Sequence record: OP870146.1
Origin: Escherichia phage vB_Eco_F27
Reading direction: 5' to 3' (one strand)
Length of the DNA: 64,000 nucleotides
Under the pieces are notes generated by a model that saw nothing but the letters and a program-made list of their open reading frames with translations, was not told the DNA's origin and made no database searches. Positions 2,616 to 7,798 of this stretch are shown one piece after another; the first letter of the stretch is position 1, and each line of letters opens with the position of its first letter. A program made the translations under genes and the position numbers.

Positions 2616-2841
2616 CTCGGTCCCATGATTTGGCCATTAATTCGGACATAAATTCTTCAATGCGCGTTTCTTTAGATGGACTTTCACTATTAGAGACCGC
2701 AAGTTTGTAATCTGCAATAGGACAGAACATATCAAGGTCCATATTAAGGTCGTCTTTGATTTTTTCTTCTGACACATCTTTATCGTATGTGTACAGATAA
2801 CTATCACATGATTCTGATTTAATGTAAATTGCTATACTCAT
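2605..2841 (-). CDS. hypothetical protein (78 aa from ATG 2839-2841; alternative ATG at 2854-2856)
   Basis: ORF track; ATGA overlap with stop of upstream gene; AGGAA SD before the 2841 ATG. Confidence 0.4.
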   Translation of the reverse strand: MSIAIYIKSESCDSYLYTYDKDVSEEKIKDDLNMDLDMFCPIADYKLAVSNSESPSKETRIEEFMSELMAKSWDRDDE

Positions 2842-3329
2842 CTCAAATTCCTGCATTCGGTAATAAAACGTTCAACTTCATTATTCTTGGCCTTTATCTT
2901 GTCTTTACGTTCCTGTAAACTACTTTTAACAAGATTAATAATGATGCCTACAGTACCTCCACCAATAATACCACCAATAATACTTACAATAGTAGATGCT
3001 AATAAGATAGCGATAATATCTAGTACAGCAAAGGCACTTACTTTAGTACTAAAAAACCATACCGACGGTACAAATATAATCCATCCTGTTATCCATTGGC
3101 ACTTATTGAAAAACTTTTCAAGCTCAGCTTGAGTTGTTCGTATTACTTCATCGATAGGTTGATATCCATTAATGTATCTGTTCACAATAATACCTGCTGG
3201 CTGGTCGATTTTAAATTCTTGGCAAATATGTTTCACTAAGTAGGATGGACATCCTGTCCAATCTACCGAATAATACGAAATACCTTCGTTGCCATCGTCT
3301 ATATTAGACCAATATGTTTTGTTAATCAT
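2838..3329 (-). CDS. small membrane protein, C-terminal ERFITECR tail (ENFIKECR-tail family), 163 aa
   Basis: ORF track trimmed to ATG 3327-3329; hydrophobic segment AVLDIIAILLASTIVSIIGGIIGGGTVGIIINLV; conserved C-terminal tail. Confidence 0.5.
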   Translation of the reverse strand: MINKTYWSNIDDGNEGISYYSVDWTGCPSYLVKHICQEFKIDQPAGIIVNRYINGYQPIDEVIRTTQAELEKFFNKCQWITGWIIFVPSVWFFSTKVSAFAVLDIIAILLASTIVSIIGGIIGGGTVGIIINLVKSSLQERKDKIKAKNNEVERFITECRNLR

Positions 3330-4015
3330 TACCAACCTTCCATAGGGAATTCCAGATAAACTTGGGCATTGACACGAATTTCATTGGTAATCTTTTTAAC
3401 TCGGTCTGTATTACGAGATACACGTCCGAACCAACGCCATCCATTACTAATTGCACGAGAACCAGTGTGCCATGTTTGCCAATCAAACTGAAGAAGAGTA
3501 CGATCTGGAGCTTCCCATTTCTCTAGTTCACCTTTTTCAATTTTTTCGAGGACTTCTTTGTGCCACTGGCGATAGATAAGTTCGCCATCAGGAATCTGAC
3601 TGAACTCTGCAGTTCCTGTTGCAAAATGAGTAGGACACACATCAGCGTTAACAAGACCAAGAATATGTTCAGACAAATAGCGAGGATTGTCATAATCAGG
3701 TTGTCCTGCAGTAATAAAATGTTGTCCTGTTGGAATATCTGGGCGTGGTACGTCATCATGGTGATATCCAGGAATAGCAGGGTACCAACCAGGCATCAAC
3801 ATGTGGACTCGTGAATCAAATACTACATCCGAGTCTTTCCAATCGTCAGGGAGATTTTGAATAAAGCTACGAGTAATTGGGCCGCCATTATCAAAAGCAA
3901 AATTCAAATCGCAGTTAAAGAACATAGGCTCGTTTTTAATCTGGTCGTTTTTAATCGCATGAGCAAAACCACCTACTGCACGAGCTTGACTATTAAACAC
4001 TTTAGAACTATTCAT
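3329..4015 (-). CDS. hypothetical protein, 228 aa
   Basis: ORF track; ATG 4013-4015 with GAGGAAAA SD; no motif recognised. Confidence 0.5.
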   Translation of the reverse strand: MNSSKVFNSQARAVGGFAHAIKNDQIKNEPMFFNCDLNFAFDNGGPITRSFIQNLPDDWKDSDVVFDSRVHMLMPGWYPAIPGYHHDDVPRPDIPTGQHFITAGQPDYDNPRYLSEHILGLVNADVCPTHFATGTAEFSQIPDGELIYRQWHKEVLEKIEKGELEKWEAPDRTLLQFDWQTWHTGSRAISNGWRWFGRVSRNTDRVKKITNEIRVNAQVYLEFPMEGW

Positions 4016-4016
4016 A

Positions 4017-4322
4017 TTATTTTCCTCGACATTCTTTAATGAAATTTTCTAGATTGGTAGATTCAATAGCTTTTTTACGAGCTTCAACATGTTCTTCTTC
4101 AGACAATTTACATTTATAATTGACCCAGACATTATGGTCGAAACTAGTCGTGGCATATAATAACAAAGCTCCGACGAATAATAAAAACGGTGATAAGAAT
4201 ATACAACCAGGCACACCATCCATACTGTAAGCCTTTTGTAATACTGCAACAGAAAGAGTTGCGTAAAAAAGTGATGCAAATATTGTTAAAAGACCAATTC
4301 GGTTGGTTTCGCCTAATTTCAT
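4017..4322 (-). CDS. small membrane protein, C-terminal ENFIKECRGK tail, 101 aa
   Basis: ORF track; ATG 4320-4322 with GAGGAG SD; early promoter immediately upstream; hydrophobic segments. Confidence 0.55.
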   Translation of the reverse strand: MKLGETNRIGLLTIFASLFYATLSVAVLQKAYSMDGVPGCIFLSPFLLFVGALLLYATTSFDHNVWVNYKCKLSEEEHVEARKKAIESTNLENFIKECRGK

Positions 4323-4350: not shown

Positions 4351-4379
4351 ACTATAACATAGTCCTATAATTGTGTAAA
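4351..4379 (-). promoter_or_regulatory. early (sigma70-type) promoter: -35 TTTACA, 17-bp spacer, -10 TATAGT
   Basis: Minus-strand sense GTTTACAcaattATAGGACTAtgTTATAGTAGTCCTAT; 9-bp inverted repeat around the -10. Confidence 0.55.
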
Positions 4380-4392
4380 CAGTTTTGCGAAA

Positions 4393-5349
4393 TTATTTGA
4401 AAGGTTTTACCATATGGAAATTTTGTTTGAAACGTTTGACGTAATCGTCATGTCCTAAGCTTTGGTACATACTTACTACTTTGCTGTAGTTTTCCCAGGC
4501 GTATTCACGGAACCAACCGGAGGTGATGCTTGTGCAGACTTTTTCTAATGCCATCATGAAACTGGCTTCAGGGTTAATTTTAAAGTCATTAGGAATCTGA
4601 GAACGTTCTAATGCTAGTACACATGATTCTTCATATACACCGGCCAATTTGACCATTTCTGGTAACGATTCGAACTTCTCGCGTGAGGTCATGACTTCAG
4701 AACCGTCTTTCATATAAAATGTATAAGCCGGACGGTCTGTTAGTGCAATGGCTTCATGAATAGTATCATGGTCATATGTATAGATGTCATCTTTAAAGAA
4801 CGCACTTTTAGAAGTGTCAAGAACCGGGTGAGCATAGTTCAAGGTTTCTTTCTGGCGTTTCAGCATAATTTCAGTAAGTTCATCGTTCAGTGTAACACCT
4901 TTACCACGAAGATACTGAATATGGTTCATAGTCTTTAAAAAGAATGGATTATTTTTCTTGAAACGATGAGACATCTTAATTGCAAGACATATCTCAGGAG
5001 TTGCCCAGTAAAACCCGTTCAAACGGTCTTTAGTCAAATTTTTCTTGGCGTATTTTAAAAGGTCATAAGAAGACGTGAAATCTTCAGGAGTGAGTTCACC
5101 GACTAATTCACGGACATTAGTGATTGCCGGAACAATATATGCTTCAAAATGAGTTTCGCGTCCATTATGGAAGCATTTGAAAACTTGGACATCAGGGTTA
5201 TCTTGGTGAACATATACACCCATCATTTGATTTTTGAATGCATTCCAAGAACCTTGGTCCGCAATAAAGTCCCAATCGCTATTTTTGATAGCGCTAGAAT
5301 CAATAAGACCATGATAGTGAAGTGCACGAGAACCAATAACTAACATCAT
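4393..5349 (-). CDS. hypothetical early protein, 318 aa; possible nucleotidyltransferase-like N-terminus
   Basis: ORF track; ATG-ATG start with GAGGAAA SD; N-terminal LVIGSRALHYHGLIDSSAIKNSDWDF resembles a GS...DxD motif (weak). Confidence 0.5.
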   Translation of the reverse strand: MMLVIGSRALHYHGLIDSSAIKNSDWDFIADQGSWNAFKNQMMGVYVHQDNPDVQVFKCFHNGRETHFEAYIVPAITNVRELVGELTPEDFTSSYDLLKYAKKNLTKDRLNGFYWATPEICLAIKMSHRFKKNNPFFLKTMNHIQYLRGKGVTLNDELTEIMLKRQKETLNYAHPVLDTSKSAFFKDDIYTYDHDTIHEAIALTDRPAYTFYMKDGSEVMTSREKFESLPEMVKLAGVYEESCVLALERSQIPNDFKINPEASFMMALEKVCTSITSGWFREYAWENYSKVVSMYQSLGHDDYVKRFKQNFHMVKPFK

Positions 5350-5377
5350 AATATTTTCCTCGGATTAATTCATTAAC

Positions 5378-5629
5378 TTAAATTTCACGACATGCGATAT
5401 TATATTCGTCCCAGAGGTCATCGTGTGAAGCCTCTACCAATGGAACGATTGTACCGTTTATGTCTTCATTATAAGGGCAAATTGTACAGTGCGCATCTTC
5501 GAATCGGATGCCTTTGTGTTCAGATTTTTTATAACGCATATCGAATATCTTTGCAAACTTTTCACGAGTAATGGTTTTAGCAACCACTTTGGTTCCGATA
5601 CTTTCGTAATAAATCATTGTGGACTCCAT
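5378..5629 (-). CDS. hypothetical protein, 83 aa
   Basis: ORF track; ATG 5627-5629; early promoter upstream. Confidence 0.45.
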   Translation of the reverse strand: MESTMIYYESIGTKVVAKTITREKFAKIFDMRYKKSEHKGIRFEDAHCTICPYNEDINGTIVPLVEASHDDLWDEYNIACREI

Positions 5630-5645
5630 TTAATTTGATAGGACT

Positions 5646-5674
5646 ACTATAACATAGCCCTATCTTGTTGTAAA
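5646..5674 (-). promoter_or_regulatory. early promoter (-35 TTTACA / -10 TATAGT)
   Basis: Same architecture and spacing as 4351-4379. Confidence 0.5.
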
Positions 5675-5679
5675 CTGTT

Positions 5680-5877
5680 TTAGCAAGAATAACTAGATGA
5701 TACCCAGCCTTGAACAGTGATACTATTATGGGATAATGAGATCGCGTCCTGGAGATTCAGACCTGCGTTATCTTCAATCCATAATGTAACTTCTTCGCGT
5801 TCTTCTGTTGCAATTTGGAACAGGTTTTCCAGAGCAGCTACTGCCGTACGTACAGCACAATCTAATTCACGAGACAT
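5680..5877 (-). CDS. small protein, tandem paralog A (C-terminal QGWVSSSYSC), 65 aa
   Basis: ATG 5875-5877 with AAGGAAAC SD overlapping the stop of the upstream paralog. Confidence 0.55.
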   Translation of the reverse strand: MSRELDCAVRTAVAALENLFQIATEEREEVTLWIEDNAGLNLQDAISLSHNSITVQGWVSSSYSC

Positions 5878-5886
5878 ATTGTTTCC

Positions 5887-6159
5887 TTAGCAAGTGTGAG
5901 AAGATGCGACCCAACCACCAGTTTCGAGGCTCAGGTTGTAGTCGTATTGGTAAACGTCAGCCCATTCAGCATAGCCGTTTTTTGTACAACGTTCAAGATC
6001 GGCTTTAAGATGTCCGGGTGAATGATAGGTTCCACCCATACCATAAGCTGGATACAAGTCGAATGTTGTGTTTTGTTTATCAGCAATTTCTTTGGCAGCC
6101 TCAATAGCTGCATAGATTTTTGCTACAGCTTCAGCCAGTTCGGTTTGTTCTTTAGACAT
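5887..6159 (-). CDS. small protein, tandem paralog B (C-terminal GGWVASSHTC), 90 aa
   Basis: ATG 6157-6159 with AAGGAA SD. Confidence 0.55.
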   Translation of the reverse strand: MSKEQTELAEAVAKIYAAIEAAKEIADKQNTTFDLYPAYGMGGTYHSPGHLKADLERCTKNGYAEWADVYQYDYNLSLETGGWVASSHTC

Positions 6160-6168
6160 AATGATTCC

Positions 6169-6474
6169 TTAGCACAACGCAGAAGACGAAACCCAAGCAC
6201 CTTCAGTAATAACGTAACCATTACCTTCACGCTTAACATCGCCACCATTATTTTCAATTTCATCTTTCATCCACTGGGATACGATTTCACCCTTAGGATA
6301 ATAAGTACGACCACTACCATAATCACCTACAGAAAATGATACGGCATATTGGTCTGCGATCTTTGTTGCTTCTTCTTCGATACGTTCAGCTTGATTCAGA
6401 AGTTTATAAATTGCATCTGAAGCGGATTTGGCATCATTAAACTCTGGTACTTTAATTTCAATAATCTTACTCAT
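6169..6474 (-). CDS. small protein, tandem paralog C (C-terminal GAWVSSSALC), 101 aa
   Basis: ATG 6472-6474 with AAGGAATG SD; ATGA overlap with upstream gene. Confidence 0.55.
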   Translation of the reverse strand: MSKIIEIKVPEFNDAKSASDAIYKLLNQAERIEEEATKIADQYAVSFSVGDYGSGRTYYPKGEIVSQWMKDEIENNGGDVKREGNGYVITEGAWVSSSALC

Positions 6475-6830
6475 TTTCTACATTCCTTAATAAAGTTTTC
6501 GATTGTTTCATTTTCACGTCTAGCTAGGAGTTCATTATAACTAATCGTTTGAGAAGCGTAAACCTTTTTATTTTTCTTGTTGTGGTTTATAAAATCGTAG
6601 TAAAAATAGACTACAGTACAAAATGATGCGATGGATGCAAAGGCTTGGGTATACCGTAAGTCCTGCCATTGGTCTGTGAATCCACCAGTGTTCCCTATAA
6701 ATCCTAACACAACGCCGTCAATAAGAAATCCAACTAATCCAAAGGCAAATCCCATGCCAATACTCATAATAAAAATTAGAATGTTCTCACCAAGAGAAGG
6801 CCATACGGTTAAGAGTTGAGGCTTTTGCAT
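6471..6830 (-). CDS. small membrane protein, C-terminal ENFIKECRK tail, 119 aa
   Basis: ATG 6828-6830 with AAGGAAAT SD; hydrophobic segments LIFIMSIGMGFAFGLVGFLIDGVVLGFIG. Confidence 0.55.
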   Translation of the reverse strand: MQKPQLLTVWPSLGENILIFIMSIGMGFAFGLVGFLIDGVVLGFIGNTGGFTDQWQDLRYTQAFASIASFCTVVYFYYDFINHNKKNKKVYASQTISYNELLARRENETIENFIKECRK

Positions 6831-7204
6831 CTTATTTCCTTAACGAATTCCATAGCTTCTTCATATTCATACTTTTTAACAGCTTCATCATACTGAGCTT
6901 GGGCTTTTGCGCACTGAACTTTCCATTCGCGTACTCGAGCTCTATAATGACGGCCTTGGTGCCAATATCCTGCCCAATTAATAGGCATTAATAAAAATGG
7001 CACAATAAACGGCCCGGCTATAATAAGTAAAAACACTGCATCAGACGATATAACTTCACTAGAATCTAAAACAGCTCCTATAATCATAAAGATTAAAAAT
7101 GCTAAAGCTAAAATAGGGCCAAATAGTACTTCATTTGGGATTAATTTACGTTTGTATTCGTATGCCCAGGGCTTAATTGGCATGTACAGGGTTGGCTTTG
7201 ACAT
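6809..7204 (-). CDS. small membrane protein (C-terminal EFVKEIRCK), about 131 aa from ATG 7202-7204
   Basis: ORF track trimmed; two hydrophobic segments; start embedded in the ECR-encoding tail of the upstream gene. Confidence 0.45.
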   Translation of the reverse strand: MSKPTLYMPIKPWAYEYKRKLIPNEVLFGPILALAFLIFMIIGAVLDSSEVISSDAVFLLIIAGPFIVPFLLMPINWAGYWHQGRHYRARVREWKVQCAKAQAQYDEAVKKYEYEEAMEFVKEIRCKSLNS

Positions 7205-7775
7205 ATTCTCTACATTCCATAATAAATTGCTCAAGGATTAAATTGTTAGTGAAATTAGGACTAACAACCATAGTTTCATAAAGCGCATCAATAGCACTTA
7301 AAGCATCAACTCTTTTAAGCAAAGGCTTGCCTTCATACATAGTTTCAGAATCGATGATTAACGTAAAGTAATATTTTTTATTATCGACTAGAACTTCCGT
7401 ATCGATATAAAACATATTAGACCTCAGAAGCTTATCTCTAAAACCATAATAATCTTCAGAGCGTTCGCTGATATATTCCCATTCAGTGTTTAAACAACAA
7501 ACAGACCATGTAGGAGCAACGAAATCGGTGAATCTAATATCATGGTCTGCAACTAGTTTAGCAATAGCTCCGATATCATGAATCATAATACCTGGGGCTA
7601 ATAAAGATTTTCTGCTATGGCTAGCCGTTTTCTCAGTAGTCTCATAAGAAGACGACCAGTACCATTTACGTCCAGTTGCAACATATCGTAATGAATCAAC
7701 TAAAGATGTAGGTGGATTTACCTTATCTCGGAACTCTTCGAACATTGAGTCAATATCATTATTTTGGTTTCGCAT
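7173..7775 (-). CDS. hypothetical protein with FIMECR motif near C-terminus, 200 aa
   Basis: ORF track trimmed to ATG 7773-7775 with AAGGAG SD. Confidence 0.5.
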   Translation of the reverse strand: MRNQNNDIDSMFEEFRDKVNPPTSLVDSLRYVATGRKWYWSSSYETTEKTASHSRKSLLAPGIMIHDIGAIAKLVADHDIRFTDFVAPTWSVCCLNTEWEYISERSEDYYGFRDKLLRSNMFYIDTEVLVDNKKYYFTLIIDSETMYEGKPLLKRVDALSAIDALYETMVVSPNFTNNLILEQFIMECREYVKANPVHAN

Positions 7776-7798
7776 GTTAACTCCTTTATTATCCAAAA

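Follow-up and report, generated by a model that had tools for sequence, protein, structure and literature searches.

A predicted nucleotidyltransferase of an RB69-type phage and the small tail-motif proteins encoded beside it

Several enzymes with the Pol-beta nucleotidyltransferase (NTase) fold are well known to act on partner proteins: MntA-HepT (a type VII toxin-antitoxin, or TA, system), GlnE, GlnD and CitX/MdcG. The group that they transfer, a nucleoside monophosphate (NMP) or one derived from a nucleotide, goes to a hydroxyl side chain of a specific, often adjacently encoded, partner protein, the acceptor being a Tyr (or the Ser of an acyl carrier protein) within a folded protein. ANT(2'')-Ia and LnuA, of about 160-180 amino acids (aa), act on antibiotics and reside on resistance elements. 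The MenT toxins are found in cellular TA or abortive infection (Abi) modules. A 68-aa antitoxin encoded immediately upstream of MenT1 covers the active site, and its N-terminal helix triggers auto-phosphorylation (PMC7450476, PMC10435456, PMC11375011); the auto-phosphorylated residue is T39 in MenT1 and S78 in MenT3 (PMC10435456, PMC11375011), and the motif III lysine is K137 and K189, respectively. RlaP and the CCA-adding enzymes of large phages are phage-encoded NTases of the same superfamily (PMC7824862). Here we compare with these systems a gene of Escherichia phage vB_Eco_F27, located in a stretch of 64,000 nucleotides (record OP870146.1; the whole stretch is called the window below) that derives from an RB69-type T4-like phage (Mosigvirus). 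The gene encodes a predicted NTase and is very commonly, not universally, accompanied by genes for small proteins that end in a shared motif.

The 318-aa open reading frame (ORF) that an initial annotation had placed at 4393-5349 is present, stop codon included, and lies on the minus strand, which that annotation had not given. It corresponds to RB69ORF134c, annotated as a hypothetical protein in the e.2-e.3 segment of RB69, with nudE/e on one side and the tRNA cluster on the other. The DNA of the ORF is 99.8% identical to that of Escherichia phage mogra and 98.1% identical to that of RB69. The gene and its parts are:

4393..5349, minus strand: NTase gene, 318 aa plus stop; RB69ORF134c; Pfam DUF7277 + DUF7275, phrog_2141
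5035..5349, minus strand: predicted N-terminal Pol-beta-type NTase core, aa 1-105; strand-helix-strand units with the catalytic residues; DUF7277 covers aa 2-101
5329..5334, minus strand: codons of G6-S7, the hG[GS] motif, at the end of strand 1
5269..5277, minus strand: codons of D25-W26-D27, the putative metal-binding DxD, at the start of strand 26-31
5143..5145, minus strand: codon of E69, candidate third catalytic carboxylate, inside strand 64-73
4396..5034, minus strand: C-terminal helical region, aa 106-318; DUF7275 covers aa 120-305; extremely conserved

The initial annotation had likened an N-terminal segment, which matches residues 3-28 exactly (LVIGSRALHYHGLIDSSAIKNSDWDF), to the hG[GS]...DxD signature of Pol-beta NTases. 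The likeness is far above chance. Among 340 unique homologs, whose identity to the query is 29% at minimum and 48% at the median, the four signature residues are near-invariant: G6 is kept in 334, S7 in 330 (with Thr in two more), D25 in 333 (with Glu in three more) and D27 in 337. Position 69 is Glu in 316 of the 340 and Asp in 19, and falls in a predicted strand (64-73). In the predicted model, V4-I5-G6-S7 spans the junction of a strand (2-5) and a helix (6-12), and D25-W-D27-F opens the strand 26-31 as the [DE]h[DE]h pair on the next strand. The annotation had also remarked that the spacing between the two motifs is longer than canonical, and it is, with 17 residues in the query against 9-13. 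Across the family this gap runs from 10 to 22 residues (mode 17) except in three outliers, and 27 members fall inside the canonical range; the gap is thus a variable loop and no evidence against the NTase fold. Structure prediction, which had been named as one check, yields an NTase fold with MenT1 and ANT(2'') as the closest solved structures. The model resembles solved NTases overall, and the toxins MenT1, MenT3 and MenT4 are its best matches. The nucleotidyltransferase reading is thereby supported: predicted structure and conserved residues place the protein, by fold, in the Pol-beta NTase superfamily, and the gene very probably encodes an active enzyme.

At the level of family, the protein stands apart. 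It matches DUF7277 (E=1e-27, aa 2-101) and DUF7275 (E=5e-79, aa 120-305) above the curated cut-off, and phrog_2141 with E=3e-150; it belongs to this separate DUF7277+DUF7275 family and not to the MenT/AbiEii, ANT, RlaP or CCA-adding families. Compared with MenT/AbiEii, it has about 150 extra, highly conserved C-terminal residues. Compared with ANT(2'')-Ia and LnuA, it has a large extra conserved domain, a protein partner and a location in the early region of a lytic phage. Unlike RlaP and the CCA-adding enzymes, to which it has no Pfam match, it has a different domain architecture and is without conserved association with RNA ligase or tRNA genes.

The C-terminal region is family-specific and extends past the minimal NTase core of aa 1 to about 130. 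Invariant in it are K125, H128, K139, H194-D195, H198, E240-E241, E248-R249 and the loop T273-S-I-T-S-G278. K125, in the helix 118-127, is kept in all 340 homologs. When residues 130-318 were modelled alone, no solved structural relative was found. One candidate considered for the region is an HD-domain phosphohydrolase, which has an H...HD...D metal motif on an HD fold.

The family is large and in effect restricted to viruses, whereas MenT toxins are cellular. A large protein database holds 2,212 relatives, and an exhaustive profile search gives 1,580 clusters at 50% identity, nearly all of about 300 aa with both domains. By tblastn, the family is present in 733 of 50,697 phage genomes, whose hosts are Escherichia (259), Acinetobacter (68), Aeromonas (59), Pseudomonas (51) and Vibrio (38), with Gordonia and Streptomyces also represented. 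The range thus covers T4-like phages of enterobacteria, Aeromonas, Acinetobacter and Pseudomonas, jumbo phages and actinophages. T4 itself is absent among the tblastn matches listed, and the RB69 record gives no T4 homolog of RB69ORF134c. One genome per species from 185,579 bacterial and archaeal species gave only five NTase loci, every one on contigs of metagenome-assembled genomes. Nearly all homolog records listed are labelled hypothetical. The homolog of Acinetobacter phage DLP3 is called a 'putative nucleotidyltransferase', so the NTase resemblance alone is not new. We found no paper on DUF7277/DUF7275, the PHROGs or the RB69 ORFs, and no published report of an NTase pairing with tail-motif proteins. 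What is new here is the conserved partnership with proteins bearing a W-x-x-S-S-x-x-C tail, together with the uncharacterised C-terminal region.

These partner proteins are encoded in the window immediately upstream of the NTase unit, where the motif occurs in 3 of the 310 ORFs of at least 40 aa (pI, isoelectric point):

6169..6474, minus strand: partner 1, 101 aa; helix, DYGSGRTYY, linker and ...GAWVSSSALC; phrog_899; pI 4.6
5887..6159, minus strand: partner 2, 90 aa; helix, AYGMGGTY, acidic linker and ...GGWVASSHTC; phrog_899; pI 4.8
5680..5877, minus strand: partner 3, 65 aa; divergent body ending ...QGWVSSSYSC; phrog_4882; pI 4.2

The partners came to light when all ORFs within 5 kb on either side of the NTase were clustered at 85 loci. 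The counts come from pattern-seeded IMG/VR samples, mostly Straboviridae, comprising 22 NTase groups at 60% identity and including contigs of 350-390 kb. One neighbour family stands out, that of small proteins (median 82 aa) found at 72 of the 85 loci, often in several copies. Counted by motif, partners occur at 77 loci and in 20 of the 22 groups; the next commonest neighbour family reaches only 6 groups. When variant tails are included, such as ...NWDGSSC at locus L080 and that of PspYZU05 gp28 (see below), partners are present at 79 loci or more. Their layout is an N-terminal helix (...AExIADEHGLxF), a YG(M/S)G(G/R)TYY core, an acidic linker of highly variable length, and a G-x-W-x-x-S-S-x-x-C tail whose Cys is the final residue of the protein. 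A26, G40, G42, W83, S86, S87 and C90 are invariant. Where partners are present, an NTase has one to four of them, which are paralogous. The motif ORFs, 201 in total, run without exception in the direction of the NTase; 197 lie upstream, mostly less than 2 kb away.

The association also holds in reverse. IMG/VR was scanned with back-translated YGMGGTYY, a pattern independent of the NTase, and all 24 matches were partners. The NTase lies downstream in 17, often 4-80 bp away; of the remaining seven, six come from contigs on which the NTase was already known, and in the last the sequence ends first. A tblastn search with one partner found it in 391 phage genomes of the same genera as the NTase carriers, and phage DLP3 has the same partner-NTase arrangement. 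Among 119 distinct DNA sequences of the tail, each of the six Ser codons occurs at either invariant Ser, Cys is encoded in both possible ways, and any of the three stop codons may follow, a diversity which indicates selection on the tail as protein. With a median pI of 4.4 and a net charge of -8 the partners are acidic, whereas the NTases are near neutral (median pI 6.2). Both partner families, phrog_899 and phrog_4882, are annotated as of unknown function, and searches for Pfam or PDB relatives gave none beyond compositional helix matches and one sub-threshold match to Nif11. A functional link between the NTase and its partners is likely.

Two unusual arrangements were seen. In Pseudomonas phage PspYZU05, gp28 (locus L113, 18398-18643, minus strand), directly upstream of the NTase gp27, lacks the YGxG core and carries the motif twice, as an internal DWNSSSC and a terminal SSWVQSSC; the module of this phage lies in a different region, with exonuclease A and a DNA helicase on either side. 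On an ENA metagenome contig (L118, 107-1240), the 377-aa protein P0237 reads through an in-frame TAG that joins a partner (...QWNSSGGPACW) to the NTase. This apparent fusion reflects either the alternative code of the gene caller or recoding of TAG by the phage; under code 11 there are two genes.

The best overall explanation, to which we give somewhat less than an even chance, is that an active, phage-restricted NTase and the small partners form a module in which an NMP is put on a Ser of the partner tail. Starting from the predicted fold, the conservation of the catalytic residues, the large conserved accessory region and the two-way gene linkage, catalysis, the choice of acceptor and all that lies downstream would proceed as follows. 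G6-S7 and D25/D27/E69 would bind NTP-Mg2+ (NTP, nucleoside triphosphate), the flexible tail of a partner would dock on the conserved C-terminal region, and a Ser hydroxyl in that tail would receive the NMP. Once modified, the partners themselves would serve as the early effectors. The tail is a possible, if doubtful, acceptor. A Ser of the tail is favoured because the only side chains that are invariant in the partner are nucleophiles, which sit where a flexible linker ends. The combination of a short invariant terminal motif and an extremely conserved enzyme domain resembles an enzyme-substrate interface. Under this working model the system would act like the protein-modifying enzymes introduced above, with a C-terminal tail as acceptor in place of a residue within a folded protein. 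No relationship in sequence between the NTase and MntA-HepT, GlnE, GlnD or CitX/MdcG was detectable, save for one sub-threshold match to MdcG.

Several observations weigh against this explanation. No partner could be recognised within 5 kb at six of the 85 loci (L028, L003 and the four of one lineage) or near either actinophage homolog, so that the NTase may use a different acceptor or a further one besides the partner. Of the characterised proteins, those nearest in structure, MenT1, MenT3 and MenT4, act on tRNA 3' ends and not on proteins (PMC7450476, PMC10435456). A small protein encoded upstream is likewise the layout of the MenA1-MenT1 TA pair, and the conserved tail could equally be an inhibitory plug instead of a substrate.

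A more elaborate fate of the tail would resemble that of ribosomally synthesised and post-translationally modified peptides. The NTase would activate a Ser of W-x-x-S-S-x-x-C by O-nucleotidylylation, and the C-terminal region, rich in His, Asp, Glu and Cys, would promote elimination and then attack by the thiol of the terminal Cys, so that a lanthionine-like ring forms at the C-terminus; otherwise a stable nucleotide-protein adduct would result. In both cases the products would be modified small acidic early effectors. We consider this a long shot; if true, this kind of modification would gain a new chemical route, in which Ser is activated by nucleotidylylation.

The main rival to tail nucleotidylylation is a MenAT-like arrangement, which we regard as unlikely. 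The NTase would add nucleotides to the 3' ends of tRNA or another RNA, shutting off host translation or changing the tRNA pool, and the partners would be inhibitors or timers placed on the active-site face, as MenA1 is on MenT1. The structural matches to the MenT toxins agree with such a role, as do the upstream position, small size, acidity and initial helix of the partners. So does the invariance of K125, which, going by sequence, is a plausible equivalent of the MenT motif III lysine. Other features argue against such an arrangement. There is no consistent match to PF08843/AbiEii (DUF1814): the query has none at E<=10, and one of 95 diverse members has one at E=0.021. The MenT phospho-acceptor, a Ser or Thr two residues before the first Asp, corresponds to Asn23 in the query, in a variable column. 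Where MenT has the motif IV Asp (D152 in MenT1, 15 residues past the Lys; D211 in MenT3), the family has, in sequence register only, the invariant K139/T140 at K125 +14/+15, and no invariant Asp before D193. The NTases are near neutral in charge and not electropositive. The partners are unrelated to known MenA families (MenA1 is MazE-related; PMC7450476), and their number, one to four paralogs and none at some loci, is unlike that of an obligatory antitoxin. Steric inhibition alone would also leave the invariant Ser-Ser...Cys-COOH tail unexplained.

Roles in RNA repair and in small-molecule modification are less likely because conserved RNA-repair or tRNA context and any defence-related signal are missing. 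In the former, which is improbable, lost 3' nucleotides would be put back by the NTase core, in the way of CCA-adding enzymes and RlaP, and the His/Asp-rich C-terminal region would be a metal phosphoesterase that cleans damaged ends, in opposition to host anticodon or acceptor-end nucleases. However, tRNA genes lie within 5 kb at only 7 of 45 loci, and no RNA ligase family is among the recurrent neighbours. The latter has similarly little probability. The enzyme would act on a metabolite or a compound resembling an antibiotic, modifying or inactivating it in the manner of ANT(2'') and LnuA, or would make or cap a nucleotide signal against a nucleotide-based defence, as the initial annotation had suggested; no defence-related signal was found. 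A non-enzymatic structural or scaffold protein that keeps an NTase-like fold is very improbable: it has in its favour the GenBank label 'prohead assembly scaffold protein' on one homolog (P0007 of Klebsiella phage vB_KpnM-VAC36, 73% identical), almost certainly a mis-annotation that could propagate, given the NTase fold and early-region context, and against it that precisely the catalytic residues are near-invariant in an otherwise diverged N-domain, that the gene has early-region genes for neighbours (the e.2-e.3 segment, flanked by nudE/e and the tRNA cluster) and not head genes, and that nearly all other listed records read hypothetical, with the one 'putative nucleotidyltransferase'.

The gene had also been described as early-expressed with a strong Shine-Dalgarno sequence. 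The latter is present; early transcription fits a promoter match without being proven by it. All promoter calls below are consensus matches:

5357..5361, minus strand: Shine-Dalgarno GAGGA, 8-9 nt before the NTase ATG, read from sequence
5646..5674, minus strand: sigma-70/T4-early-like promoter match TTTACA-17-TATAGT with upstream TG, heading the RB69ORF135c-NTase two-gene unit
4351..4379, minus strand: second TTTACA-17-TATAGT + TG promoter-like site, directly past the NTase stop and ahead of the next gene
6534..6562, minus strand: sigma-70-like promoter match TTTACG-17-TATAAT, just upstream of partner 1
5378..5629, minus strand: 83-aa ORF RB69ORF135c, phrog_3723, separating the partners from the NTase; includes ...CTICPYNEDINGT..., last residues ...NIACREI

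Early expression of the NTase gene is plausible from these signals. The promoter-like sites at 4351-4379 and 5646-5674 are near-identical and flank the RB69ORF135c-NTase unit, a pair consistent with the modular early-promoter cassettes of T4-type phages. RB69ORF135c itself occurs at 12 of the 85 loci, in close relatives only, and is therefore probably an insertion rather than a core part of the module.

Other neighbours recur to varying degrees. The 228-aa ORF RB69ORF132c (phrog_1843, annotated as of unknown function; 3329-4015, minus strand), two genes downstream of the NTase, is found at 23 loci and has no Pfam match. Five minus-strand ORFs (2838-3335, 4017-4322, 6471-6830, 6809-7234 and 7173-7796) share a C-terminal motif, ...FI(K/T/M)ECR... 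or FVKEIRC, as in NFIKECRGK, NFIKECRK, RFITECRNLR and QFIMECREYV. Two of the five match phrog_2203, 'membrane protein', and in the RB69 record the counterparts e.2, e.3 and e.4 are given as predicted membrane proteins. From their sequences the five look like a paralogous or recombining gene family, or a conserved 3' cassette beside early promoters. Just downstream of the NTase at locus L043 (6198-6977, plus strand) and 13 other loci, in 3 NTase groups, is a protein of about 247 aa that begins ...VFVIGDIHGNYG..., a motif that we take to suggest a calcineurin-like or lambda-type Ser/Thr phosphatase. In phage DLP3 (L117), an ORF two genes downstream of the NTase (3853-4167, plus strand) is annotated as a 'putative ADP-ribosyl transferase'; it is not a recurrent neighbour elsewhere.

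Large as it is, the family still appears in databases under two domains of unknown function. With the NTase assignment and the tail-motif partners, two sets of hypothetical early genes, found in hundreds of large phages, become a single enzyme-partner system open to testing. Should the tail be the substrate, these phages would have a virus-specific pathway of protein nucleotidylylation; if the partners are inhibitors, lytic phages would carry MenAT-like toxin modules, possibly for host shut-off. Either outcome touches early host takeover in phages that serve as models and therapeutics.
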